This document shows, piece after piece, positions 24,374 to 40,051 of a stretch of 53,515 nt of DNA. The DNA comes from Candidatus Magasanikiibacteriota bacterium (lineage in GTDB: Bacteria > Patescibacteriota > Patescibacteriia > Magasanikbacterales > UBA10003), in the NCBI GenBank assembly GCA_016214465.1, contig JACROI010000032.1:1-53515 (forward strand), in the 5' to 3' direction. The notes under the pieces are model-generated. The model worked only from the letters and a program-made list of their open reading frames with translations. It ran no database searches and was not told the origin of the DNA. Each line of letters starts with the position of its first letter. The first letter of the stretch is position 1. The translations under genes and the position numbers were made by a program.

Positions 24374-24757
24374 ATGACTTTTTTAAAACAGCCCTTTTTC
24401 GGCGGCTTAGAAGCCGCGGTAATGGAGACAATTTGGGATTTGCGCGAAGCCGCCGTCAGAGATGTCTTGAAAAAAATAGGAAAAAAGAAAAAATTGGCCT
24501 ATACCACCGTGATGACGGTAATGAGCCGTCTTTTTGCCAAGGGTTTTTTAAAACGCAAACTGGACCAAAAAGGCGCTTATCTTTATACTCCCTGTCAAAA
24601 TAAAGAATCATTTTTGGCTTCTGCTTCCAAAAAGGTCGTTAATGATTTACTCAAAGAATATGGAGATATGGCTGTTGCTCAATTTATTGATGCAGTGGAG
24701 AGCGGCAATTTGAAAAAAACAGCTCAATGGAAGGAAAAGCTTAAAAAAATTAAATAA
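24374..24757 (+). CDS. BlaI/MecI/CopY-family winged-helix transcriptional repressor
   Basis: LEAAVMETIWDLREAAVRDVLKKIGKKKKLAYTTVMTVMSRLFAKGFLKRK is the family signature. Confidence 0.85.
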   Translation: MTFLKQPFFGGLEAAVMETIWDLREAAVRDVLKKIGKKKKLAYTTVMTVMSRLFAKGFLKRKLDQKGAYLYTPCQNKESFLASASKKVVNDLLKEYGDMAVAQFIDAVESGNLKKTAQWKEKLKKIK

Positions 24758-24758
24758 T

Positions 24759-25805
24759 ATGAGGTCAATGTCGCGGTCGGTTAATCTGATTTTTTTCCAA
24801 GTTCTTGGCGCGGGCTTGGCAGTTTTGGCAATAATATCTTTTTTGGCCATTAAATTTTATCCGATTTTTTCAACGCTTTGGAGTGGTTTAGCGCAACAAT
24901 TGACAATGATTTGCGGTTGCGCCAATCATTGGCATTTTGCCAATCACCCGATTATTTTTTCTTTTTTTATCGGCGTTGGTTTAATAGCTACGGTTTTATT
25001 TTGCTTTGTTTTGTTTAAAACCGGCAAAATGATTTGGCAAACGCGTCGGTTTGTGAAAGATAATTTGAAAAAAAAGAAAAGAGGATTTTCATTTAAATTA
25101 TCCAGAATTGTGCGGCAAGTCGGTTTGGCAGGGCAAATTACGGAGATTAAAAAAGACCAGCCAATTGTTTTTTGCCACGGGTTTTTTCAACCGCGGATTT
25201 GCGTTTCTGCTGGACTGGTCAATCGTTTGAGCGAAACGGAATTGCGCGCTGTGCTGTTGCATGAAAAATACCATCTGTTGTCACGCGAGCCGATTAAAAC
25301 TTTGGTTGTCAAAATTTTGGCTGCGTTTTTTTTCTTTTTGCCGGGATTCAGCTCTTTAGCGAAAAAATATCTGGCTTATGCCGAGCTGGCGGCCGATGAA
25401 CACGCCACTGTTGGTTTTCGAGAGAAAATGCCTTTGGCGCGAGCCCTTTACAAAACAATCAAATGTCGAGAGTTAATGGCTATCAAACAGCAATTAGCTT
25501 TATCTTTTTTCAGCCAAGTGACCGAAGAGAGAATAAACAAGTTGGCTGACAGCGCTTATATTCCAAAAATAAAAGTTTTAAATTGGAAAATGATTTTTAG
25601 TTCCGCGGTTTTTGTTTTAGTTATATTTTCTTTTTGGTCTGTTTTAAATTCACCAATGTTGGCGCTGGCGGAAAAGGAAACAAGTATCTGCCTAGCAACT
25701 CCGGTTGCCGGTTCGCATCATCGTGAACAATGTGTTTTAGAAATGCCGAATAATTCTTGTTTGATTCCCAATTATTCTTTGTCGGCGAATGATAGCTGTG
25801 GATAA
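24759..25805 (+). CDS. BlaR1/MecR1-like M56 peptidase signal transducer lacking a penicillin-binding sensor domain
   Basis: TM segments are present with the zinc motif LLHEKYHLLSREP (HExxH) and EL(A)ADEHA downstream. The C-terminal extracytoplasmic tail is Cys/His-rich (SICLATPVAGSHHREQCVLEMPNNSCLIPNYSLSANDSCG). Confidence 0.8.
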   Translation: MRSMSRSVNLIFFQVLGAGLAVLAIISFLAIKFYPIFSTLWSGLAQQLTMICGCANHWHFANHPIIFSFFIGVGLIATVLFCFVLFKTGKMIWQTRRFVKDNLKKKKRGFSFKLSRIVRQVGLAGQITEIKKDQPIVFCHGFFQPRICVSAGLVNRLSETELRAVLLHEKYHLLSREPIKTLVVKILAAFFFFLPGFSSLAKKYLAYAELAADEHATVGFREKMPLARALYKTIKCRELMAIKQQLALSFFSQVTEERINKLADSAYIPKIKVLNWKMIFSSAVFVLVIFSFWSVLNSPMLALAEKETSICLATPVAGSHHREQCVLEMPNNSCLIPNYSLSANDSCG

Positions 25806-25869: not shown

Positions 25870-26619
25870 ATGCTGGATTTACGCCAGGAAAAATCTTTAT
25901 TTTTCTTTTTAAATTTGGGCCTCATAGTTTTGATTTTAGGTTTGTTCGGCGTTAATCAGATTGTCATGGCAAAAACTATGAATGCCATGGGAATGAAAAA
26001 TAATAGCATGTTTAATTTATCCTCTTTTGATAAATCTTTGAATAAAGATGGCACTGTTGATTTGACCGGCGACATTGGAAAAGATGCAGTTTCTTTAGCG
26101 CTTTTTTCCGGCCAACCAAAAATTTACGGCGCGGAACTGAACATTGCTTTTGATCGGGCGGCCGCGGCTATGAATGCGATGAAAGTTTTTGATCCGACTT
26201 ACGGCAGTCAGAAAATCACTTTATCCGGCGCTGATTTACAGCGATATACTGATGTTGGTTTGCGAATTGCCTGCGAATTTTGTTGCGGCGCCAAAGCGCT
26301 TATTGACAAAAATGGCCAGGCGGCTTGCGGTTGCGCTCATTCGCAAGCCATGCGCGGTTTGGCGGCCTATCTGATTCAAAAGCACGGCGCCGAGTATACC
26401 AATGATGAAATTTTGCGCGAGTTGGCGCGTTGGAAAGGAAGGTATTTTCCAAAACAAATGATTAAAAAAATATCTGAACAATTGCAAAGCGGGCAGTACA
26501 CGCCGGATATCGCGGCTTTGGTGCTGAATTTGAAACTTCCCAAATACAGCGCTTCCAACGTCGGTGCCCCACTACCTTCGGAAATAAAAGATCTGCCAAG
26601 TATGGTTGGCGGATGCTGA
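25870..26619 (+). CDS. N-terminally anchored Cys-cluster protein (CEFCCG...CGCAHS) ending in LPSMVGGC
   Basis: An N-terminal TM is present. The Cys cluster IACEFCCGAKALIDKNGQAACGCAHSQ is reminiscent of PCYCGC-motif proteins (low confidence). The extreme C-terminus is ...EIKDLPSMVGGC. Confidence 0.65.
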   Translation: MLDLRQEKSLFFFLNLGLIVLILGLFGVNQIVMAKTMNAMGMKNNSMFNLSSFDKSLNKDGTVDLTGDIGKDAVSLALFSGQPKIYGAELNIAFDRAAAAMNAMKVFDPTYGSQKITLSGADLQRYTDVGLRIACEFCCGAKALIDKNGQAACGCAHSQAMRGLAAYLIQKHGAEYTNDEILRELARWKGRYFPKQMIKKISEQLQSGQYTPDIAALVLNLKLPKYSASNVGAPLPSEIKDLPSMVGGC

Positions 26620-26644
26620 CATAATAAATTTTAATTTAATCTTT

Positions 26645-26959
26645 ATGGATATTCAACACAACGAACACGCTGCGCCTGAACATACGTCGGAAACGCCAAT
26701 TACGCCGGCGCCGAGCGATTTGGAAATTTTGAAAACACAGATATTGGCCGAATTACAGCCGCAAAAGACCAATCGAGTTCCTCTGGCTTGGGGTAGTTTG
26801 TTGGTTACCATTGTTTTGAGTATTTTGGCTGTGGTTTCCATTGTTCAAGCAGTGCAATCAGCGCAGATTTTAAGCAAAGTTAAAAGCGGTAATTTTGGCG
26901 CTGCTTCCGCTCCGGCGTCTAATTTGGAAAATTTGCCCAATATGGTGGGCGGCTGTTAA
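26645..26959 (+). CDS. Small single-TM protein ending in LPNMVGGC
   Basis: The ATG at 26645 is preferred over the overlapping alternative start at 26606. There is one TM (LAWGSLLVTIVLSILAVVSIV). The C-terminus is ...NLENLPNMVGGC. Confidence 0.6.
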   Translation: MDIQHNEHAAPEHTSETPITPAPSDLEILKTQILAELQPQKTNRVPLAWGSLLVTIVLSILAVVSIVQAVQSAQILSKVKSGNFGAASAPASNLENLPNMVGGC

Positions 26960-26962
26960 AAT

Positions 26963-27784
26963 ATGGTGGATTCATTTAAGAAAATTAATCTTAATTTTTG
27001 GCTTTTTGCTACGTTGGCCATTGTCATTTTAGCGAGTTTAATTATTGTTTCAATTAATTTTTTGCGCGTCAATTTGACTCTGAACGGAAAAATCGCTTTG
27101 GCTGAAGAAATAAAACGTCCGGCCGAAGTGGAGGCGATAATTGTTAAAGAGTCATCTTGCGTGGAGTGCGTGGATGTCGCGCCGATTTTGGAAAAGATAA
27201 AACAAAATAATGTTAACATTAAATCAATCAAGACCGTGGAGCGAATGAGCGAGGAGGGTGACGGTTTGATTAAAAAATATAGTTTGGAGAAAATTCCTTC
27301 CTTTATTTTGACCGGTGAAATAGACAAGGGCGAATTTTTGAAAAAAATACTACCGGCCTTGGGTGAAATCAAAGATAATGCTTTTATTCTGAAAAATATC
27401 GGCGGCCCGTTTGTGGCTGTGGCTGACGGCCAAATTAAGGGCAAGGCAAAATTGATTTTATTAACTGATTCAACTTGTCCGCAGTGTTATGACGCGGTTG
27501 TGCATCAAGCGATTGTCAAACAATTCGGCTTGAATCCGACAATAGAAACGGTTGACAGTCAATCCTTGGTCGGTAAAAAATTCATCAGCGCTTACAGAAT
27601 ACAATTATTGCCAACCATAATTATTCAGGGCGATTTGGGAGTTTATCCGCAGTTGAAAACCGTTTGGCCGCAGGTGGGCGATATTGCCAAAGACGGCGCT
27701 TATGTTTTTAGGCAAGGTGTCAAAGGCATGGGAGTTTATCATGATTTAGCCAGCAATAAAATAATTGAGCCGCAGAAAAAATAA
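26963..27784 (+). CDS. Membrane-anchored double thioredoxin-fold protein disulfide oxidoreductase-like protein (two CxxC)
   Basis: An N-terminal TM is followed by CVEC (ESSCVECVDVAPILEKIK) and CPQC (TDSTCPQCYDAVVHQ) in two similar halves. This arrangement resembles two-domain glutaredoxin-like PDOs. Confidence 0.65.
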   Translation: MVDSFKKINLNFWLFATLAIVILASLIIVSINFLRVNLTLNGKIALAEEIKRPAEVEAIIVKESSCVECVDVAPILEKIKQNNVNIKSIKTVERMSEEGDGLIKKYSLEKIPSFILTGEIDKGEFLKKILPALGEIKDNAFILKNIGGPFVAVADGQIKGKAKLILLTDSTCPQCYDAVVHQAIVKQFGLNPTIETVDSQSLVGKKFISAYRIQLLPTIIIQGDLGVYPQLKTVWPQVGDIAKDGAYVFRQGVKGMGVYHDLASNKIIEPQKK

Positions 27785-27789
27785 TTTTT

Positions 27790-28623
27790 ATGGATAAACA
27801 GACAAAAATTGTTTTAGTTATTATTGTTATTTTGGTCATCGGCGGCATTGCCGCGGCCGTAATGGCGACGGTTAAAGAAAAAGGACAGAACGGTGTGCCA
27901 AAATTGGTTTTGGAAATGAATAGTTTTGATTTTGGCGATGTAGCCATGGCTGACGGCAAAATTACAAAAAATGTGAAAATTAAAAATGACGGCAATGGCG
28001 ATTTAAAAATTTCTAAAATTATCACTTCTTGCATGTGCACCGAGGCGTTTTTGGAAGTCGACGGTAGAAAGAGCCCTGCTTTTGGCATGCCCGGGCATGG
28101 CAACGGCCCTCTGTTTTGGTCGGAAATTATCAAGCCCGGTGAAGAAGGCAATTTGGAAATTGTTTTTGACCCTAACGCTCATGGGCCTGACGCGGTCGGG
28201 CCAATTACGAGAAATGTCATCATCACCAGCAATGACGGCGGAGAGAGCGGTTCAACCAAGACGATTACTTTTGACGGCAATGTTGTCAAAGGCGAGGTGA
28301 AAAAGACCGAGCCGGTGAACGTGGACGCGGAAATTTTATCCGTTTCGCAAAGCGGCGTGGAGGTGCGGGTGGCGAAGGTGACAAAACAAGGCGGTAAAAC
28401 AATCGTGGAGTTCACCGCTGACAACCATGCTGTTGATTTATCAACTTTTGATGTTAAAAACCAATCAAGTTTAGCCGGACAACCGGCTAGCAATTATGTG
28501 ATTAAAGATGGTGGCGGAGGCGGGCATCATTTGTCTGCGGAATTGATTTTTAACAAGGAATTGTCAGGCGCGTTGATTATCGGATTTAATAAAAATTTGA
28601 TTTTTAATTTAGTGATTAAATAA
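27790..28623 (+). CDS. DUF1573-domain protein with C-terminal extension
   Basis: An N-terminal TM is followed by FDFGDVAMADGKITKNVKIKNDGNGDLKISKIITSCMCT, which is the DUF1573 signature. Confidence 0.7.
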   Translation: MDKQTKIVLVIIVILVIGGIAAAVMATVKEKGQNGVPKLVLEMNSFDFGDVAMADGKITKNVKIKNDGNGDLKISKIITSCMCTEAFLEVDGRKSPAFGMPGHGNGPLFWSEIIKPGEEGNLEIVFDPNAHGPDAVGPITRNVIITSNDGGESGSTKTITFDGNVVKGEVKKTEPVNVDAEILSVSQSGVEVRVAKVTKQGGKTIVEFTADNHAVDLSTFDVKNQSSLAGQPASNYVIKDGGGGGHHLSAELIFNKELSGALIIGFNKNLIFNLVIK

Positions 28624-29075
28624 TGAAAAATTATTCTCCCTTGGTTTGGGGTTTGGGCGGAGCCATTAGTATTGTCGTTATTTTTTATTTGGTACAGGCC
28701 TGGGGCATGCAAAGCTGGGTTGGGCCGCTGTATCAATTTCAATATAAATGGTATTTTATTGTGCCTTTAATTGTCGGTTTTGGCATTCAGGCCGGATTGT
28801 TTCGGGCTATTCACCTTAAAGCCAAGCGCGGAGGCGGCGGAACCATGGCGGCTTCCGGCGGCGTTTCCACCCTAGCCATGGCTGGTTGTTGTTTGCATAA
28901 TTTTGCCGCGTTGTTGCCGATTTTGGGAATTTCCGGTTTGGCTATTTTTGTTTCCACCTATCAGAGTTATATTTTTTTAGTAAGCATCGTTTTTGTGACC
29001 GGCGGAGTGATTTACATGGTTAGAAAATATCTAAAAATGGATTCGTGTTGCGGTCTTCCAAATAATGAAATATGA
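28623..29075 (+). CDS. Four-TM membrane protein with intramembrane and C-terminal vicinal cysteine pairs
   Basis: It carries AMAGCCLHNFAALLP inside a predicted helix and ...MDSCCGLPNNEI at the C-terminus. The start overlaps the upstream stop (taATGa). Confidence 0.55.
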   Translation: MKNYSPLVWGLGGAISIVVIFYLVQAWGMQSWVGPLYQFQYKWYFIVPLIVGFGIQAGLFRAIHLKAKRGGGGTMAASGGVSTLAMAGCCLHNFAALLPILGISGLAIFVSTYQSYIFLVSIVFVTGGVIYMVRKYLKMDSCCGLPNNEI

Positions 29076-29566
29076 AAAGAAACCTTTTTATCGGCCTTAT
29101 TGTCGTTATTGCAGCTTTGGTTGTTTTTTTAATAATTAAAGGAGTGTCTGAATTTGAGCCTTTGGGCGAAATCGTGCCAATCATGGGCAACAATCATATT
29201 CAAGTTAACGCACCGCACGAACCATACAATTCCAATCCGCCCACTTCCGGGCCACATGCCGAAGATGTTGATTGGGGAATTTATCAAGAAGAAATTCTTG
29301 ATGAAAATGTTATTCATAATTTAGAGCACGGCGGTGTTTGGATTACTTATCAAGATAAAAATAATCAGGAATTAGAAACTAAATTGGAAGAATTGGTGAA
29401 ACAATATAAATCCAAAGTTATTTTATCGCCGCGTTCGGCCAATGATAGTCCCGTCGCCGTTGTTTCCTGGGGACGGATTATGAAATTGAATGATTTTGAC
29501 GCGGAGAAAATAAATAGATTTATCAAGCAGTATAAAAATAAAGGGCCGGAATTTATTCCGGATTAA
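29072..29566 (+). CDS. DUF3105-domain protein (membrane-anchored)
   Basis: PPTSGPHAEDVDWGIYQEEILDENVIHNLEHGGVWITYQ matches the DUF3105 motif (PxSGxH ... HxLEHG). Confidence 0.7.
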   Translation: MKRNLFIGLIVVIAALVVFLIIKGVSEFEPLGEIVPIMGNNHIQVNAPHEPYNSNPPTSGPHAEDVDWGIYQEEILDENVIHNLEHGGVWITYQDKNNQELETKLEELVKQYKSKVILSPRSANDSPVAVVSWGRIMKLNDFDAEKINRFIKQYKNKGPEFIPD

Positions 29567-29568
29567 GT

Positions 29569-30009
29569 ATGTTTTATAAATGGCAGTTTTGGTTGATAGT
29601 CGCTTTGATTATTTTGGGCAGTTTAAGTGTTTATGGTTATTTTAAGGCGATCCCTCCGGTAATAGATAAAAATCAAGCGATTCCCAAAATTGAAATCACG
29701 CCGACTTTTTTTGATTTTGGCAAATTGGATTTTGGCAAAATTGCGGAGAAAATTTTTATCGTGAAAAACATTGGCCAACAAGTTCTGGAAATTAAAAGAG
29801 TAACCACTTCTTGCAGTTGCACCTCTGCTCAAGTCAGCAAAGAAACCATTAATCCTGGCGAAGAAGCGGAATTGCAAGTGCGCTATGACACGGCGGCCAT
29901 GGGTTCTGGTTCGCACGGCAAAGGCCAGCAAGACCGGATTATTTACATTAAAAGCAGCGACCCAACGCGTCCGCAAGTGGAAATAATCATCAGCTCTTTT
30001 GTCAAATAA
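29569..30009 (+). CDS. DUF1573-domain protein
   Basis: FDFGKLDFGKIAEKIFIVKNIGQQVLEIKRVTTSCSCTSAQV. Confidence 0.7.
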   Translation: MFYKWQFWLIVALIILGSLSVYGYFKAIPPVIDKNQAIPKIEITPTFFDFGKLDFGKIAEKIFIVKNIGQQVLEIKRVTTSCSCTSAQVSKETINPGEEAELQVRYDTAAMGSGSHGKGQQDRIIYIKSSDPTRPQVEIIISSFVK

Positions 30010-30015
30010 TTATTT

Positions 30016-30717
30016 ATGATACCATCTTTTATCACGCTTTCTCCAGCTACTGCCGTTCCTTTGATTGCTATTACAGGTTTTATTGACGGCATTCATCCAT
30101 GCGCCATTGCCATTTTGGTTTTTTTTATTGCTTTTTTGCTCACGCTTCAGCGTAGTTTTAAGAAAATTTTTGCTTTGGGAATGGTTTATGTTTTTGTTAT
30201 TTTTTTGACTTATTTGGCCATTGGCGTGGGTCTGCTTTCCGGCATAATGTTTTTTGGACAACATCATTTTTTTGCTAAGGTTGGTTCATGGCTGTTGATT
30301 TTGTTGGGTCTGTTTAATTTGCGCGATATTTTTTTGCCACAATTGAAATTAGGCATAAAATTGCCGCGCGTTTCCAATGATAAAATTCGCGAACTTTTAT
30401 CAACCGCCACTTTTCCTACAGTAGCAATTGCCGCTTTTTTAGTCGGACTTTGTTCCGTGCCTTGTTCAGGTGGAATTTACGCCGCCATCACCGCTCTTTT
30501 GGCCTCACAAACATCATTTTTTACAGGTTTCCTCTATTTACTGCTTTACAATTTTATGTTTGTGTTGCCGTTAATAATTATTTTGGCCATTTCCACCAAT
30601 CCTTACACTTTGGTTAAATTGGGCGATTGGCAACAAAGAAACAAAAAAAGCCAAAAAATTATTATGGGTGTTGCTATGATAATTTTAGGCGCTGGAATTT
30701 TAATTTTTATTGTTTAA
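30016..30717 (+). CDS. CcdA/DsbD-family thiol-disulfide transmembrane electron transporter
   Basis: Six TM segments are present, with one Cys in each half ([13 protein letters not shown] and [14 protein letters not shown]). Confidence 0.7.
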
Positions 30718-30967: not shown

Positions 30968-31465
30968 ATGATTGACCAGCAACCAATGCGACAATTTTTA
31001 GACAAAGTGGAAAAATTGAAAAAAGAGCATCAGTGGGATTTGTCATCTGATGAAGATTTGTCCATTGCCGTGATGAATTTGGTAAGTTTGGAAGAACATT
31101 TTTTCTTTACCGGCGCCAAAACCGGCAAAGGAGAATACTATGATTTGCTGACGCAGGTGAGGGAAGTGCGGAAAGATTTATTAAAAAAAATTGTGAAAGA
31201 ACCGGAAGGGGAAGTGTGGTGCATTTCCAAACATCTTTTGGCCGCGAGCATGCGATTGATTGAGGTGGGTACGAAATTATTAAATCAAAAAAGAAAAGAG
31301 GACGCCGAGGAATTATTTACCAAGGCCTATAATTTGTATTCTTTATTTTGGGGACTTAATTTAAAAGTGGTACCATTGGGCGACATTAAGAAAAAAGAAG
31401 ACAACGAGTTAACCGGCAAATTAGACGATTTAGTTGAAAAATTAATTGATTGTTGTAAAGAATAA
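30968..31465 (+). CDS. Cytoplasmic helical hypothetical protein ending in ...IDCCKE
   Basis: The ORF has good coding character and no TM. A vicinal Cys pair sits near the C-terminus. Confidence 0.5.
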   Translation: MIDQQPMRQFLDKVEKLKKEHQWDLSSDEDLSIAVMNLVSLEEHFFFTGAKTGKGEYYDLLTQVREVRKDLLKKIVKEPEGEVWCISKHLLAASMRLIEVGTKLLNQKRKEDAEELFTKAYNLYSLFWGLNLKVVPLGDIKKKEDNELTGKLDDLVEKLIDCCKE

Positions 31466-34262: not shown

Positions 34263-34291
34263 TTGACACTCATACCCCCCTATGGTATAAT
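34263..34291 (+). promoter_or_regulatory. Consensus promoter TTGACA-17-TATAAT with CsoR-type operator ATACC-N7-GGTAT in the spacer
   Basis: ttgaca (34263-34268) and tataat (34286-34291). The inverted repeat atacc cccctat ggtat (34272-34288) carries a C tract. The ATG of csoR lies 7 nt after the -10. Confidence 0.6.
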
Positions 34292-34298
34292 AAAAATT

Positions 34299-34568
34299 AT
34301 GAAGGACGCCATTAAGAAAAATATTCTTCATCGACTAAAAATTATAGAAGGCCAAGTGCGCGGCCTGCAAAAGCTGACTGAGGAAGATACATATTGTGTG
34401 GATATTATTTCACAATCAGCGGCAGTCAAAAATGCCATTTCCGGTATAGAGAATTTAGTGTTGGATAATCATTTGTCCACGCATGTGGTAGAGCAAATAA
34501 AAGCTGGTAAAGAAAATCAAGCGATTAAGGAAATCCTGGCAGTTTATAAGTTATCAAAAAGACGGTAG
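34299..34568 (+). CDS. csoR: CsoR/RcnR-family metal-sensing transcriptional repressor
   Basis: ILHRLKIIEGQVRGLQKLTEEDTYCVDIISQSAAVKNAISGIENLVLDNHLSTHV is present. The family signature R.+GQ..G+ ... C.D...Q..A is met, with Cys and His ligand positions present. Confidence 0.85.
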   Translation: MKDAIKKNILHRLKIIEGQVRGLQKLTEEDTYCVDIISQSAAVKNAISGIENLVLDNHLSTHVVEQIKAGKENQAIKEILAVYKLSKRR

Positions 34569-34602: not shown

Positions 34603-34884
34603 ATGGAAGATGTAAAATGCAATTATTGGCGCTGTGCCAATCGTATCGGGCTATTTTTAGCGATTTTGTTCGTTTTTTGTTTTGTGTTTCATTATTTTCG
34701 TCCGGTGGACGCGGAATTGCGCGTTAAGTTGTTTCAGATGGCTTTTCTCGGCTTTTCCGGCATGAATTTTGCCAGCTTTGTTCTCGGTTTGATTCAAAGT
34801 TATATCTACGCTTATATCGGGTTTGGTTTGTGGTTTTTGGTTGGATGTTGTATTAAAAGCGGAGCGGAGTGTGAGAAGAAATAA
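34603..34884 (+). CDS. Small membrane protein (2-3 TM), hypothetical
   Basis: Hydrophobic helices are present. Cys residues occur near both ends (VKCNYWRC..., ...GCCIKSGAECEKK). Confidence 0.45.
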   Translation: MEDVKCNYWRCANRIGLFLAILFVFCFVFHYFRPVDAELRVKLFQMAFLGFSGMNFASFVLGLIQSYIYAYIGFGLWFLVGCCIKSGAECEKK

Positions 34885-34909
34885 TTTTAATTTTTTGAAA
34901 TCTAAACAT

Positions 34910-35098
34910 ATGGTATTCGGATTATTTAAAAAACACTGCTCCACCTGTGGGATGGATGTTGAAAAAGAAAAAGCGATAAAAAGATTCGGCGAATATTTTT
35001 GTTCAGAAGAACACGCGGAAGGATATCGTCAGAAAATGGCGACAGAAGAGTCAAAAACAGCAAAACAAGGCGGCGGCGGGTGTTGCGGTGGGAAATAA
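34910..35098 (+). CDS. Small YHS/TRASH-like metal-binding protein ending in GGGGCCGGK
   Basis: CSTCGMDVEKEKAIKRFGEYFCSEEH follows the CxxC...FCS pattern of YHS/TRASH domains. The ATG at 34910 is preferred to the long overlapping ORF-track start. Confidence 0.55.
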   Translation: MVFGLFKKHCSTCGMDVEKEKAIKRFGEYFCSEEHAEGYRQKMATEESKTAKQGGGGCCGGK

Positions 35099-36266: not shown

Positions 36267-37961
36267 ATGGGAAAAACATCTTTTTATTTAATTTTTACAG
36301 TTGTTATAGGCGTTGCTCTTGTCTCATTTTGGTCATACCAAAAGTATTTTAATAAAGTAGAGCCAGAGCCGCTTTTGTTTAAGGTTGAAAGAGGGCCTAT
36401 TAAAGAAATAGTAAAAGTAAGGGGAGAAGTCGTATCGCAAAAAAATTTTGATTTGGGGTTTCTCTTTTCCGGTTTTGTGGAAAAAATTTTTGTAAAAGAT
36501 GGGCAACAAGTCAATCAGAATGATCCTTTGTTAATGCTAGAAACAACCGATTTTGAATTAGAAATTAGGGAACTGGTCGCTTTGCTGGCTTTGTCCAATG
36601 CAAATGTAAAATCCCAGCAAGCGAAATTGGATGAACTGAAAAAAGGTATACGCGTTGAAGAAATTCAAATAGTTGAAACAAAATTAGTTAATTCTGAAAA
36701 ATCGCTACAAGATGCAGCTGACAACCTTGAAAAAATTAAAGAAAAAGCTCAAGCAGATTTGGATGACGCTTACAGTAACGCTCTTACTGCTATTCAAAAA
36801 GCAGTGATTGTTGGGAAAAATGCTCTTTTGACTCTAACTGACATTCAATACGCTCATCTTTTAGGCACTGATCAAGACGCGATAGCAGTGGCTGAAAAGA
36901 AAGCAATTGCGGTGAAAGCGCTCTTGGGTGCTGACAGTGCCGGCAGAATGTTTTCAAATTCTTTAAGCATCTTGAGCGGCGGAGCTTACAGCACTGTTCA
37001 AAAGGCGGCAGTCAATCCCGTATATGTGAATATTGATTCGGCGTCTCTGGAAACTTTAGATGCTTTACAAAAGGTAAAATCGGCTCTGGAATCGGTTCCT
37101 GTGACTTTTGAATGGACATCAACTGAAAAAATAAATATGAGCGCGGAAAAAAATAATGTTAGCGCGGAAATTTCAACAATTTCAAACAGGCAAAAAACAA
37201 TCATAACTCAAAAGTCAGCTAATGCCAGTAGTATTTCTTCCGCGGAAGCAGGTGTTACTGGCGCAAAAAATACTTTAGCGACAGCCACGGATGAATTAAT
37301 TCTTAAAAGAGCAGGAAGCACTAAAGAGCAAATTACCGCGCAGGAGGCGATTGTAGAATCAGGCCAAGCAAATGTTCAAAGTGTTCAAGCGAGAATTGCT
37401 GGGGTTTGGGAAAAAATCAAAAAATCAACTCTCTACGCTCCGGCAGACGCCAAGATCACCAAAGTTTGGTTTGAAAAACAAGAACTGGCAAGACCGGGAC
37501 AAACCGCCGTAACTCTTGAAACTTCCGGTCATAAAATTCAAGCTGATGTTTCTGAATTGGAAATAGGGAAAATAAGAGAGATAAATGGCAACAAAGTCCT
37601 GATTCAATTTGATTCTTTTCCTGATTTGAACTTCAATGGCGAAATTATATCCGTTGAACCAAAGGAAATTGTCAAAGAAGGTGACAAATACTATCGGGTA
37701 AATGTGTTTATAGAGCCGCATGATTTAGAAATTCGCTCCGGGATGAGCGCTGATTTGACAATTTTAATTTTATCAAAAGATAATATCTTGAAAATTCCGG
37801 AACTTACCATTTATAAAAAAGACGGTAAAAAATTCGTAACGATTTTTGAAGAAAGTAGACAAAAAGAAGTGGAGATCAAAACAGGTATCTCCAACGGTGA
37901 ATCAATTGAAATAATCAGCGGACTTAATGAAGGACAGATTGTAGCGCTTTTTGCCGACTAA
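36267..37961 (+). CDS. HlyD/MacA-type periplasmic adaptor (membrane fusion protein) with long coiled coil
   Basis: An N-terminal TM is followed by a lipoyl-like segment (GFVEKIFVKDGQQVNQNDPLLML), a long helical hairpin, and a beta-barrel segment near the C-terminus. Confidence 0.75.
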   Translation: MGKTSFYLIFTVVIGVALVSFWSYQKYFNKVEPEPLLFKVERGPIKEIVKVRGEVVSQKNFDLGFLFSGFVEKIFVKDGQQVNQNDPLLMLETTDFELEIRELVALLALSNANVKSQQAKLDELKKGIRVEEIQIVETKLVNSEKSLQDAADNLEKIKEKAQADLDDAYSNALTAIQKAVIVGKNALLTLTDIQYAHLLGTDQDAIAVAEKKAIAVKALLGADSAGRMFSNSLSILSGGAYSTVQKAAVNPVYVNIDSASLETLDALQKVKSALESVPVTFEWTSTEKINMSAEKNNVSAEISTISNRQKTIITQKSANASSISSAEAGVTGAKNTLATATDELILKRAGSTKEQITAQEAIVESGQANVQSVQARIAGVWEKIKKSTLYAPADAKITKVWFEKQELARPGQTAVTLETSGHKIQADVSELEIGKIREINGNKVLIQFDSFPDLNFNGEIISVEPKEIVKEGDKYYRVNVFIEPHDLEIRSGMSADLTILILSKDNILKIPELTIYKKDGKKFVTIFEESRQKEVEIKTGISNGESIEIISGLNEGQIVALFAD

Positions 37962-37972
37962 TTGTATAGATT

Positions 37973-38833
37973 ATGCGGTCAAAAGACACTCAATTGAAAG
38001 TTGATCCTGTTTGCGGCATGGATTTGTCCGAATACACGGATGTTGTTGAAATTTTTCATCAAGAAAAAGGGTTTTACTTTTGTGGAAAAGGATGCGAAGA
38101 TAGATTTAAAAAAAATCCAAGCAGATTTCAAGGAGAGCCGCTTATTAAGTTGGATAATATTTGGAAGATTTTTAAGCTTGGTGAGACAGAGACCAAAGTT
38201 CTCACGGGTTTAAATCTTCATATTTGGGAAGGTGATTTTGTGGCCATTATTGGCTCGAGCGGTTCCGGCAAAAGTACCGCTTTAAATATGATAGGTCTTT
38301 TAGATCGGCCGACTTCCGGTCGGATTTTTTTAAATGGCGAAGATGTGTCTTTATTGAACGATGATAAAAGGAATGGACTCCGTTCTAAAACTTTCGGTTT
38401 TGTGTTTCAGCAGTATAATTTAATATCGTGGCTGACTGCCTATGAAAATGTAAATCTTCCGCTTGTCTTCTCCGGAAAAAAAATTGAAATGAAGAAATTA
38501 GAAGCTCGTTTTGAAAAAATGGGCCTGAAAGAGCGTCTGACCCACCGTTCTTTTGAACTTTCCGGCGGAGAACAGCAACGCGTTGCGCTTTTGCGTGCTT
38601 TAGTAAACGATCCGGAAATAATTCTAGGAGACGAGCCGACCGGCAATTTGGATTCAGCAACCGGTAATAAAATTTTAGAAATACTGATTGATTTGAATAG
38701 AAATCGTAAAAAAACGCTCATCATAGTTACCCACGACGCCGATATAGCTGAGAAGGCCGATCAAGTCATTACTTTTAAGGACGGACATTTAGTGCGAGAC
38801 CATCAGGCGCATAAAAAAGCATATACGGAATAA
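37973..38833 (+). CDS. MacB/LolD-type ABC transporter ATP-binding protein with N-terminal YHS domain
   Basis: The YHS motif is DPVCGMDLSEYTDVVEIFHQEKGFYFCGKGCEDRFKKNPSRF. It is followed by Walker A GSSGSGKST, Q-loop, signature LSGGEQQRVALLRAL and Walker B IILGDEPTGNLD. Confidence 0.85.
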   Translation: MRSKDTQLKVDPVCGMDLSEYTDVVEIFHQEKGFYFCGKGCEDRFKKNPSRFQGEPLIKLDNIWKIFKLGETETKVLTGLNLHIWEGDFVAIIGSSGSGKSTALNMIGLLDRPTSGRIFLNGEDVSLLNDDKRNGLRSKTFGFVFQQYNLISWLTAYENVNLPLVFSGKKIEMKKLEARFEKMGLKERLTHRSFELSGGEQQRVALLRALVNDPEIILGDEPTGNLDSATGNKILEILIDLNRNRKKTLIIVTHDADIAEKADQVITFKDGHLVRDHQAHKKAYTE

Positions 38834-38848
38834 ATATCAACAAGAAAT

Positions 38849-40051
38849 ATGCTGAAAAATTTTCTCATTTTAACCTTAAAGAGTATTAGACATCGCTCAA
38901 CCAGAAGTTGGTTGACGATTTTAGGCATTGTCATCGGCATAATGTTGGTAGTCATTATTTTGGCATTAAGTTCCGGTATTAAAAATACGATTGCCGGGGC
39001 ATTGCAGACATTCGGATCGGATTTGATTATAATTTTTCCCGGTAAAGAAAATAATCCCATTGTTGGATTTTTGGCCGGGCAAAAATTCAGAGAGAAAGAT
39101 CTGGTAGATCTTGAGAAAATAAATGGCGTTAAATTCGCCGTACCAATGGGTATTGGCAATTTAAATATTGAACATAATGGAGAAGTAAAATCAACAATGA
39201 TTCATGCCGCCAATTGGAAAAAATATGTAGAGGTATTAGAATCGTCTCAGGGTATTAAGCTTGAGACCGGTCGATGGCCTGAAAATGATGAAGTGTCCGA
39301 GGTAGTTTTCGGCCACTTGGCCGCTAAAACATTTTTTAAAAAAGAAGTGATGGTTGGAGACGAGGTAATTATCAAATCAAAAAGATTTAAGGTTGTTGGC
39401 AATCTTTCCGAAATCGGCGAACAGATGATTGATAATGTTATTTTTGTTTCTTTGGATAGACTTGACAGTTTAACCGATTCTCGCGGCGTTTCCAGCGCTT
39501 TAGTAAAAGTAATGCCAGGAGCGAATATCAATTTGGTGGCCCAGCAAATAAAATTTCAGCTTTCCAAACAAGAAGTCATTCGCGATTTTTCAGTTTTAAC
39601 TCCAGAAAAAGCTGATCGTTTAATTGATAATGTTATTTCAATCGTTGAGTTGGTTTTAATGATCATCGCGTTAGTGTCTTTGGTAGTGGGAGCGGTAGGC
39701 ATTATGAACACTATGTATACTTCAGTTTTGGAACGAACTAAACAGATTGGGGTTATGAAGGCAATCGGTGCTTCTGACGACGCCATTCTCTCGCTATTTC
39801 TGATAGAGTCTGGTTTTATCGGTTTAGTTGGAGGAATTTTAGGAATTTTTTTTGGAATACTTTCGGCGTATTTCATTGGTTTAACTGCCGCTGGCTTCGG
39901 GATTAGAGGATTATTTTCTTTCGCATCATTGGATTTCTTCGGACTTTTTGTCATTTTGTTTCTTACTTTCATTATTGGAGTTCTATCAGGCGTATTGCCT
40001 GCAAAGCAAGCTTCTCGCATGGAGCCGGCTGAGGCATTGCGTTATGAATGA
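38849..40051 (+). CDS. MacB/FtsX-type ABC transporter permease
   Basis: TM1 is followed by a large extracytoplasmic domain and three C-terminal TMs with the GVMKAIGASD motif typical of the FtsX/MacB fold. Confidence 0.8.
   Translation: MLKNFLILTLKSIRHRSTRSWLTILGIVIGIMLVVIILALSSGIKNTIAGALQTFGSDLIIIFPGKENNPIVGFLAGQKFREKDLVDLEKINGVKFAVPMGIGNLNIEHNGEVKSTMIHAANWKKYVEVLESSQGIKLETGRWPENDEVSEVVFGHLAAKTFFKKEVMVGDEVIIKSKRFKVVGNLSEIGEQMIDNVIFVSLDRLDSLTDSRGVSSALVKVMPGANINLVAQQIKFQLSKQEVIRDFSVLTPEKADRLIDNVISIVELVLMIIALVSLVVGAVGIMNTMYTSVLERTKQIGVMKAIGASDDAILSLFLIESGFIGLVGGILGIFFGILSAYFIGLTAAGFGIRGLFSFASLDFFGLFVILFLTFIIGVLSGVLPAKQASRMEPAEALRYE

Follow-up and report, generated by a model that had tools for sequence, protein, structure and literature searches.

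We analysed a stretch of 53,515 nucleotides (the window) from a Candidatus Magasanikiibacteriota bacterium (assembly GCA_016214465.1, contig JACROI010000032.1, positions 1-53,515, forward strand), in which two adjacent genes encode membrane proteins that end in the same Cys-terminated peptide. The first open reading frame (25870..26619, +), hereafter protein A, closes with ...APLPSEIKDLPSMVGGC before its stop codon, and the second (26645..26959, +), protein B, with ...SAPASNLENLPNMVGGC. Both reading frames and both LP[SN]MVGGC tails are exactly where a preliminary description of this DNA had placed them; the likeness, which that description limited to eight residues, extends in fact over about 16, AP.(P/A)S.(I/L)..LP.MVGGC. 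The tail lies at 26566..26616 (+) in A (APLPSEIKDLPSMVGGC) and at 26909..26956 (+) in B (APASNLENLPNMVGGC). Outside it the two proteins are unrelated, as had been proposed.

Protein A counts 249 amino acids and comprises an N-terminal signal-anchor helix, an extracytoplasmic helical domain that carries a Cys5-His cluster, and the tail with its terminal Cys. The transmembrane anchor (residues 9–28; 25894..25953, +) falls within a helix that AlphaFold2 places at residues 7–39, and is followed by the near-invariant pair N29-Q30, conserved in at least 90% of the sequences. The Cys cluster, C135-E-F-C138-C139 ... C153-G-C155-A-H157 (26272..26340, +), is made of invariant columns: C135, E136, C138, C139, C153, G154, C155, A156 and H157 do not vary in 96 sequences of the candidate phyla radiation (CPR), the motif is also invariant in the archaeal members of the family, and it is present in 147 of 150 family representatives. 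R125, R162, E184, W188, K189, Y86 and a FDPTYG segment are invariant as well. The AlphaFold2 model of A (predicted local distance difference test, pLDDT, 87.8; predicted template modelling score 0.75) displays the membrane helix, the helical domain and, at 135–155, the knuckles bearing the Cys cluster; the last four residues, 246–249, have a pLDDT below 50 and are thus predicted to be flexible. For an archaeal relative, the A domain is modelled at a pLDDT of 95–98 and ten-residue blocks over its shorter tail region average about 85–92; this model hints that the archaeal tail docks back in cis on its own domain. Two readings of the cluster were rejected, a heme-binding site, since CxxCH is absent, and an exported iron-sulfur cluster, since there is no Tat signal.

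No family of Pfam or NCBIfam matches A. Its profile finds nothing better than E 1.4 among the PDB sequences, and Foldseek searches of the PDB with both models (A and the archaeal relative) give best E values of 1.1–2.4, none being below 1. As far as the models tell, A is a new Cys5-His fold with no solved relative. We take its CGC-x-H to recall the PCYCGC-motif proteins; the corresponding Pfam model (PF13798) gave no match for A at E up to 0.1. Twelve A-like proteins have no tail: in most of them a 4-helix membrane domain with a GCPxCG motif is fused N-terminally, and the neighbouring B keeps its tail (tail-less fusions are seen at L016:2191-3456, L025:6009-7316, L039, L059 and L075, in our numbering of loci). 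Fused forms with a tail were also found. The GCPxCG domain exists separately in CPR loci, as a protein of 160-166 amino acids (e.g. L037:494-991) with no match in Pfam or NCBIfam. AlphaFold2 models the fused archaeal domain at a pLDDT of 45–80, at which VKOR-like, DsbB-like and MerF-like folds are not distinguishable.

Protein B, of 104 amino acids, is far simpler: a His-rich cytoplasmic N-terminus (45 residues precede the helix), one transmembrane helix (residues 47–71; 26783..26857, +; from hydropathy, positive-inside counts and motif count) with a conserved VQAVQ at its outer end, a Ser/Ala/Gly-rich linker, and the tail, which holds the only Cys. B evolves fast, so that a word index gave 7 homologues only, all ending with LPNMVGGC; the family was recovered through the DNA pattern scan described below. 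Among the 62 members used for the anatomy of B, Q-x-x-Q stands at the outer end of the helix in 90%, linkers measure 24–83 amino acids, and 59 have no Cys but the terminal one, the other 3 having another. The CPR versions have a His-rich cytoplasmic N-terminus, sometimes with a CC pair (HHHEH; SCCAHD), and some DPANN versions a Met/His-rich insert, ETYEEMMARMHPDQ. This insert subtype (G-ETYEEMMARMHPDQ before the tail; L031:420-656, L087:4744-5061, L104:1594-1836, L113:1722-2114) adjoins DUF411/CopG-like, HCPLC-membrane and f9 genes in place of the multi-thioredoxin gene discussed below. B matches no family of Pfam or NCBIfam; its functional features are the arm and the membrane anchor only. 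An alternative TTG start of B at 26606 would overlap the end of A (26606-26644), and one homologue (P0122, 117 amino acids) was called from a TTG start; the other homologues agree better with the ATG at 26645.

By positive-inside counts, the N-in orientation is favoured for 85% of the A proteins against 2% for N-out, and for 58% of the B proteins against 8%. The preliminary description, which gave both proteins a single N-terminal transmembrane helix and extracytoplasmic tails, is therefore supported as to the side of the membrane; its placing of the helix does not suit B, where the helix spans about residues 47–71 and is not N-terminal.

In a six-frame scan of the window, MVGGC is found at the ends of A and B only, and 2 sites there fit the degenerate DNA pattern of MVGGC-stop, for 0.00 expected (100 dinucleotide-preserving shuffles). 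Over the eight shared codons we recounted the five synonymous differences already reported (ctg/ttg, cca/ccc, gtt/gtg, gga/ggc, tgc/tgt), to which one non-synonymous difference is added (agt/aat, S/N). Recoding or read-through of the stop codons was rejected: the genes end with TGA and TAA, and translation table 11 works throughout the window.

The tail extends far beyond this genome. Clustered at 90%, the homologues of A number 648, every one from a metagenome of Patescibacteria type and without a Pfam domain; 118 of the best 120 end with [MQ]VGGC (107 MVGGC, 11 QVGGC). For archaea, the query was an archaeal A protein deprived of its last nine residues, so that the motif was unable to seed the search, and 120 of the best 120 homologues nevertheless end with [MQ]VGGC (117 M, 3 Q). 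A profile search of 1.84 billion representative proteins (E up to 0.001) brings the whole A family to 269 clusters: judged from sequence, it is a small and sharply bounded family.

A scan for the pattern CCN-NNN-ATG-GTN-GGN-GGN-TGY-stop in one genome per GTDB species yielded at least 119 loci. Among the matches listed, those at real ends of open reading frames fall in the A or B families only, the others being short chance reading frames in unrelated bacteria (as are the matches in contigs labelled Methanothrix or Methanotrichaceae). Among these same matches, the A-like carriers have 160–460 amino acids and all display I-x-C-E-[FY]-C-C-[GS], 10–12 residues, then C-G-C-x-H-[SA]; the B-like carriers have 60–115 amino acids, with an N-terminal helix ending in Q-x-x-Q-L, a Ser/Ala/Gly-rich linker and LPS.L.NLP.MVGGC; and the organisms are mostly DPANN archaea (Woesearchaeota, Aenigmatarchaeota, Nanoarchaeota, Pacearchaeota, Micrarchaeota, Diapherotrites), together with Patescibacteria (Paceibacterota, Magasanikiibacteriota, Uhrbacteria, Peribacteria). 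The Woesearchaeota include the complete genome of archaeon GW2011_AR20. The tail is thus not specific to CPR, DPANN archaea being at least as rich in it. Save where a contig end cuts the locus, A and B are nearly always direct neighbours in the same orientation. The preliminary description had pointed to two possible weaknesses, that the motif be missing from homologues in other genomes or occur at random without conserved context; it is found in homologues of both A and B elsewhere, and wherever it occurs in homologues its context is conserved.

Some carrier metagenome-assembled genomes bear odd labels, namely Methanosarcinales (L011, L018, L033, L048, L056, L060, L067, L077, L095), Udaeobacter (L029), Binatia (L079) and Gammaproteobacteria (L105). 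Their contigs, several of which are short, look like DPANN or CPR; contigs of episymbionts may be mis-binned. Directly 3' of B in many DPANN loci (L033:1742-1960, L046, L056, L060, L066, L079, L114) stands a small archaeal lipoprotein of 65-72 amino acids (lipobox ...LIGC, Gln-rich linker), whose internal Y-V-G-G-G-C-G-V-A-P is tail-like but not terminal.

The positions of the tail are not equally strict. Taking the best 150 A-family representatives of the 269 clusters, of which 140 have a complete C-terminal region, the terminal Cys is present in 129. Among these 129, Gly at −3 is found in all, Val at −4 in 118 and Gly at −2 in 110, the other 19 having S, D, E, A or K; at −5 the residue is M (91), Q (33), W (3), F (1) or I (1). 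The LP at −8/−7 is often AP, AD or absent in relatives. Rare variants, MVGSC, WVGEC and MAGGC, exist on contigs too short to reach B. From these sequences, the signature of the family is [MQ]-V-G-G-Cys-COOH.

This retention of the Cys would also be expected if it were the site of a covalent modification or of a cofactor (persulfide, thiazoline, lipid, or a carried group as on the C-terminal Cys of HypE), the modified arm being the active species. A terminal Cys after Gly is indeed a favoured substrate for several Cys-modifying chemistries, and the anatomy of the arm suits a carrier. On the other hand, no YcaO, MNIO/DUF692, radical-SAM, LanD-type, rhodanese or lipid-transferase gene is conserved beside the pair, and the arm stands outside the cell, where an ATP-dependent modification is impossible, so that such a modification seems to us improbable.

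The residue at −5 gives access to the relation between the two tails. To widen the sample of pairs, a second scan, for LP.QVGGC-stop, was carried out in metagenome contigs; each set of pairs was chosen by one tail only, so that the tail of the partner was free to differ. Even before this second scan, QVGGC on A was matched by QVGGC on B in three CPR and three archaeal loci. Over 75 distinct A-B pairs (less than 90% identity), the residues in A/B are M/M in 47, Q/Q in 27, Q in A with M in B in 1, and M in A with Q in B in none. The sole discordant pair (L161:1520-2465 and L163:4821-5766, from the same organism) associates an A ending with ...LPSQVGGC with a B ending with ...GTDMVGGC, this B being of the Met/His-insert subtype. 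The switch from M to Q has at least 4–5 independent origins, several Q sequences having M sequences as nearest relatives.

In nearly all pairs the tails of A and B differ synonymously, by a mean of 2.2 of 15 nucleotides where the peptides are identical. That the peptide and not the DNA is conserved, proposed at first for the window, thus holds for the pairs at large. Because peptide-identical tails differ in this way, gene conversion is not the cause of their agreement; and the M/M versus Q/Q agreement despite the DNA differences implies that both tails are under one co-evolving constraint, which, to judge from the sequences, must be a shared docking site or a contact between the tails. A resemblance due to chance, to a recent DNA duplication or to gene conversion, with no shared function, has nothing for it but the short length of the motif; against it stand the absence of matches in the shuffled sequences, the synonymous differences in nearly all pairs and the conservation over two domains of life, which make its probability negligible.

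Co-variation of the tails is also what one recognition pocket would impose on a processing or attachment signal. A peptidase or transpeptidase would cut the tail, and the new C-terminus would be released or ligated to a surface component, A being possibly the enzyme and B the substrate; sortase LPXTG signals, double-glycine leaders and the precursors of ubiquitin or Atg8 would be the models. With LPXTG, double-glycine and ubiquitin-like GG-X ends (such as GG-CF in QbsE) the tail shares a short and strict terminal LP/GG motif, borne by unrelated proteins and suited to one reader. Its last five residues are very strict, including V and G which are not ligands, and LP stands at −8/−7; B resembles a small anchored substrate; a tail-less A still lies beside a tailed B; and the conservation of A is enzyme-like. 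The details fit poorly, however. The tail has a single residue after GG and neither the hydrophobic segment nor the basic end that sorting signals need: it reads LP-x-M-V-G-G-C, which is not an LPXTG signal, and the protein ends at the Cys. A double-glycine leader does not correspond either, the motif being at the extreme C-terminus with one residue past GG, and no C39-domain transporter is found in the window or the related loci. The ubiquitin-like beta-grasp proteins (ThiS, MoaD, CysO, QbsE) differ from A, helical with Cys knuckles in its AlphaFold2 model, and from B, which is a helix and a linker; the tails are predicted outside, and no E1-like adenylase or JAMM protein is among the neighbours. 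In the 74 loci no recurrent neighbour is a sortase, a result that does not extend to the remainder of the genomes, which was not searched, and no C39, JAMM, rhombosortase or archaeosortase family recurs there. Moreover LP is often replaced, and Gly −2 is replaceable whereas the terminal Cys is kept in 129 of 140, which designates the Cys as a functional group rather than a leaving residue. The preliminary description had suggested cleavage at or after GG by the M56 peptidase encoded upstream; this finds no support, given the replacement of Gly −2 by S, D, E, A or K, the presence of M56 in only 15 of 74 loci and the cytoplasmic orientation of the protease domain in BlaR1-type proteins. Altogether we hold a processing signal for improbable.

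The genes around the pair give a context to this tail. In the window they are, in order, a BlaI-like repressor, an M56 peptidase, A, B, a double thioredoxin-like protein, a DUF1573 protein, a Cys-pair membrane protein, a DUF3105 protein, a second DUF1573 protein and a CcdA/DsbD-like protein. Neighbours were counted over 74 tail-bearing loci, 57 of which have enough flanking sequence for downstream genes to be assessed; redox and metal genes were tallied over 77 loci in 8-kb views.

The commonest downstream neighbour is a multi-thioredoxin gene, with two domains in CPR and three in archaea, which in 39 of the 57 assessable loci follows the pair at a distance of three genes at most; in the other 18, DUF411/CopG-like, HCPLC membrane, f9 or DsbD-type genes are found instead. 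In the window it encodes a membrane-anchored double thioredoxin-like protein resembling protein disulfide oxidoreductases (PDO), with CVEC and CPQC (26963..27784, +; Pfam Thioredoxin_9 and Thioredoxin_3): Thioredoxin_9 scores 25.0 bits for a cut-off of 25, the other thioredoxin-family matches are below their cut-offs, and PDO_seleno_TRX reaches 25 bits for 185. In the archaeal three-domain version Thioredoxin, Thioredoxin_2 and Thioredoxin_3 are above the cut-offs. That the tail could be a tag for this double-CxxC oxidoreductase, one of the first suggestions, remains plausible given the 39 loci, with the restriction that the association is not universal.

Further downstream come a membrane-anchored DUF1573 protein with a C-x-C motif, SCMC (27790..28623, +; PF07610, 8.3e-13), which recurs in CPR loci; a Cys-pair membrane protein with AGCC and, at its C-terminus, SCCG (28623..29075, +), which is MerT-like and yet not a member (NCBIfam merT_RC607: E 0.0064, 16.9 bits for a cut-off of 130) and whose family is found in 11-12 loci; a DUF3105 protein (29072..29566, +; PF11303, 2.1e-30); the second DUF1573 protein, with SCSC (29569..30009, +; PF07610, 1.3e-18); and a CcdA/DsbD-like membrane thiol-disulfide transporter (30016..30717, +; weak matches to SfLAP, DsbD and ArsG), which likely supplies reducing power to the outside. 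DsbD-type membrane proteins are present in about 30 of the 74 loci (36 by clustering), and redox-type neighbours in 61 of 77. A 165-amino-acid protein of the family that we call f9 follows (30968..31465, +), with a conserved WC(I/M)SKH and a C-terminal DCCKE; it has no Pfam match and is found in 10 loci, of CPR and DPANN. In archaea a neighbour family, f4, displays a single CxxT site and a near-terminal Cys. Ten neighbour families were scanned against Pfam and NCBIfam, and f9, f10 and the GCxxCG membrane protein belong to no family of either.

Such neighbours could point to a pure thiol-disulfide relay. The terminal Cys would then be a tethered monothiol that shuttles between the Cys cluster of A, acting as a redox centre, the multi-thioredoxin protein and CcdA/DsbD; it would do, as part of a protein, what glutathione does, or what the shuttle cysteines do in DsbB, VKOR, Erv2 and ribonucleotide reductase, and the metal genes would be nearby merely because copper stress and thiol stress coincide. 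In its favour are the prevalence of the multi-thioredoxin gene, the CcdA/DsbD-type proteins of about 30 loci and the AhpC/Redoxin proteins, the f4 neighbours of archaea, the fusion of archaeal A to a 4-helix CxxC membrane domain reminiscent of VKOR/DsbB, and the many invariant polar residues of A, which suggest catalysis. PMC7507113 describes CPR and DPANN as ancestrally devoid of electron-transport chains and, so far as that account goes, these organisms are without quinone-dependent DsbB or VKOR chemistry; the relay would give such quinone-less cells an extracytoplasmic pathway for forming or reducing disulfides. Conversely, the multi-thioredoxin gene is replaced nearby by CopG-like, HCPLC-membrane or f9 genes in 18 of 57 loci, the Met/His- and His/Cys-rich segments of B are of a kind usual in metal binding and not in redox shuttles, no terminal electron acceptor or donor is identifiable, and the fold search links A to no known thiol oxidoreductase. 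A relay of disulfides alone is the main rival of the reading that we favour below, attractive if rather doubtful.

Metal genes are the second component of the context. Downstream in the window lies a metal island with SHOCT, YibE/F, a second DsbD_TM, AhpC/Redoxin, a CsoR-family repressor, a metallothionein-like reading frame, a YHS ABC ATPase and CopA; this CopA bears GMHCASC, CPC, YN and MxxSS, a set that we take to be the Cu(I)-type P1B-1 signature. The same gene order is found in distant CPR genomes, with cupredoxin, HMA-ATPase, CsoR and DUF302 genes, and DUF411/CopG stands directly 3' of B in several DPANN loci; CopG holds a Cu4 cluster via a CxCC motif (PMC7558416). Within the island, the reading frame 34823-35098 has a weak prokaryotic-metallothionein match (E 2.9e-4, below cut-off) and ends with ...AKQGGGGCCGGK, a Gly-flanked Cys tail; it overlaps the end of the reading frame 34603-34884 and its start is uncertain. 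The ABC ATPase (37973-38833), whose N-terminal metal-binding domain is of the YHS/TRASH type (DPVCGMDL), is flanked by a HlyD-like gene (36267-37961) and a permease gene (38849-40051).

Upstream of A, a repressor of the BlaI/CopY family (24374..24757, +; Penicillinase_R, PF03965, 4.7e-24), found at the same position in L001, L003, L124 and L125, probably regulates the cluster in CPR. It precedes a BlaR1-like M56 metallopeptidase of 348 amino acids with HEKYH (24759..25805, +; Peptidase_M56, PF05569, 4.4e-12), so that 24374-25805 has the M56 domain with HExxH and the BlaI-family repressor of a BlaR1/BlaI pair. The penicillin-binding sensor domain is not found in the M56 protein, which scores 22 against NCBIfam blaR1_generic for a cut-off of 400. 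Near its N-terminus this protein displays C-G-C-A-N-H-W-H, and its C-terminal end is rich in Cys and His (CLATPVAGSHHREQC...NDSCG); it may be a version of the BlaR1/BlaI switch that senses a metal or a thiol. M56 occurs in 15 and BlaI in 14 of the 74 loci. The protease domain of BlaR1-type proteins faces the cytoplasm, and we rejected an inhibition of M56 by the tails in the manner of a cysteine switch on this ground and because M56 is absent from most loci.

Altogether these data establish a conserved, extracytoplasmic and flexible arm ending in Cys, carried by two unrelated and adjacent membrane proteins in a context of thiol-redox and soft-metal genes. Most likely A and B form a mobile thiol arm within a cell-surface system, not described before, that handles copper-like metals or thiol redox. 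We tentatively favour an arm whose extracytoplasmic thiolate relays a soft metal, probably Cu(I), while the thioredoxin and CcdA genes keep it reduced. The two proteins would make up one module on the outside of the cytoplasmic membrane, each with a flexible [MQ]-V-G-G-Cys-COOH arm whose terminal Cys, a mobile thiolate, would be the working group. The bulky residue at −5 and the small V-G-G spacer would dock the arm in one common site, either the Cys cluster of A or a shared partner. Once docked, the arm would bind and pass on a thiophilic cargo, most likely Cu(I), which would travel through the cluster of A, the Cys-pair membrane proteins and the CopG-like and DUF1573 proteins, and finally reach the Cu(I) ATPase system. 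The CcdA/DsbD-like transporter and the membrane-anchored multi-thioredoxin protein would hold the exposed thiols reduced and repair copper-induced disulfides. B would be a second, freely swinging arm, and the only one in lineages where A has lost its tail. Cu(I) is our best guess for the cargo because of the CopA, CopG, cupredoxin and YHS neighbours, of the Met/His-rich segments of B and of the fusion of A to a Cys-pair membrane domain. As Met at −5 is replaced by Gln in about one quarter of the family, and by a few Trp, Phe or Ile, this residue is more likely a docking residue than a ligand. The preliminary description had proposed a Met/Cys tail for Hg(II) or Cu(I): by context a soft metal leads, Met is less likely a ligand than a dock, and nothing favours Hg over Cu. 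MerA, MerP and MerR are not found in the window cluster or the related loci.

Several observations weigh against the relay of a soft metal. The cargo is guessed from neighbouring genes, and no more than about 25 of the 77 loci show explicit metal genes, many of the 8-kb views being incomplete. Since the residue at −5 is often Gln and sometimes Trp, Phe or Ile, it does not qualify as a conserved Cu ligand, and a lone Cys in each arm makes by itself a weak site. The many invariant residues of A other than Cys (E136, R125, R162, W188, K189, Y86 and others) fit an enzyme better than a simple chaperone. The CsoR/RcnR-family repressor of the window (34263-34568) has an apparent C-H-H set (YCVD ... 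NHLSTH) and not the Cu(I)-type C-H-C, so that the metal it senses may not be copper. Finally, we looked for the reader of the tail through substitutions that track the switch from M to Q: within A the tail column alone recurs, and the columns that come into question in the multi-thioredoxin protein are confounded with phylogeny.

Flexible C-terminal Cys arms are found elsewhere, in MerA (CC), CTR1 (HCH), thioredoxin reductase (GCUG) and Erv2 (CGC), and the comparison with known systems is instructive. Like the Mer relay (MerP, MerT/MerF, MerA), in which a chain of thiol ligands leads from an outside protein via membrane Cys pairs to a partner, with a flexible C-terminal Cys arm, the module is accompanied by Cys-pair membrane proteins in the window and related loci, and archaeal A is fused to such a domain. 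Unlike Mer, it has one Cys per arm, outside the cell, two unrelated carrier proteins and a new fold in A; the curated models of MerT, MerF and MerP match neither A nor B, and the protein at 28623-29075 is below the cut-off of merT_RC607. With the copper-tolerance thiol systems (ScsABCD of Salmonella, CopG/DUF411, CcdA/DsbD) the loci share membrane-anchored thioredoxin folds, a DsbD-type transporter and copper genes, and in some DPANN loci CopG-like genes lie directly beside the pair; none of these systems, however, has proteins with a conserved terminal-Cys tail, and A and B have no homologue there. A further likeness is to the shuttle-Cys tails (CGC of Erv2, GCUG of thioredoxin reductase, class I ribonucleotide reductase, the loops of DsbB/VKOR), where a flexible thiol commutes between a partner and a buried redox centre, and can work in trans between subunits as the arm of B must for a tail-less A. 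Those tails, on the other hand, have two redox-active residues and belong to enzymes whose cofactor is known; the present tail has one Cys, no cofactor site can be recognised, and a distinct protein consists of little but the arm. As for metallophores of the ribosomally synthesised and post-translationally modified peptide class (methanobactin, bufferins), no MbnBC, MNIO/DUF692 or similar family is among the recurrent neighbours. By analogy, the module would work most like the swinging-Cys-arm thiol relays and resembles the Scs/CopG/CcdA copper systems, being a member of none; we rate it as a thiol-arm relay built from new parts. In full-text literature MVGGC gave unrelated matches only, and the literature searched neither describes the A-B module nor mentions A or B, for which there is also no curated family and no solved relative.

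Such novelty leaves room for another, unlikely, interpretation, in which the A-B pair is the core of an unrecognised extracytoplasmic thiol chemistry peculiar to the ultra-small, quinone-less cells of CPR and DPANN. A would be a new metalloenzyme fold, and the arms membrane-tethered monothiol co-substrates with a reader of their own, surrogates of a glutathione-type thiol and more than ligands for a metal. This chemistry would replace the machinery of the DsbB/VKOR type, or would be an ATP-independent reaction at Gly-x-Cys, e.g. a thioester formed via an N-to-S acyl shift.

Whatever the cargo, the almost perfect M/M versus Q/Q match of two unrelated proteins offers a natural experiment of unusual clarity in the search for what reads a terminal motif. 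CPR and DPANN represent a large share of microbial diversity, and few of their conserved surface proteins have been given a function; our analysis defines there a compact module common to the two domains of life, made of a new Cys5-His fold, an arm-only partner and a co-evolving terminal-Cys tail, with a signature that can be annotated at once. If the module is truly a metal or redox shuttle, it would give biochemistry a short and testable peptide motif, and would show by what means cells that have neither periplasm nor quinones, and are poor in small thiols, guard or maintain the surface that they expose.

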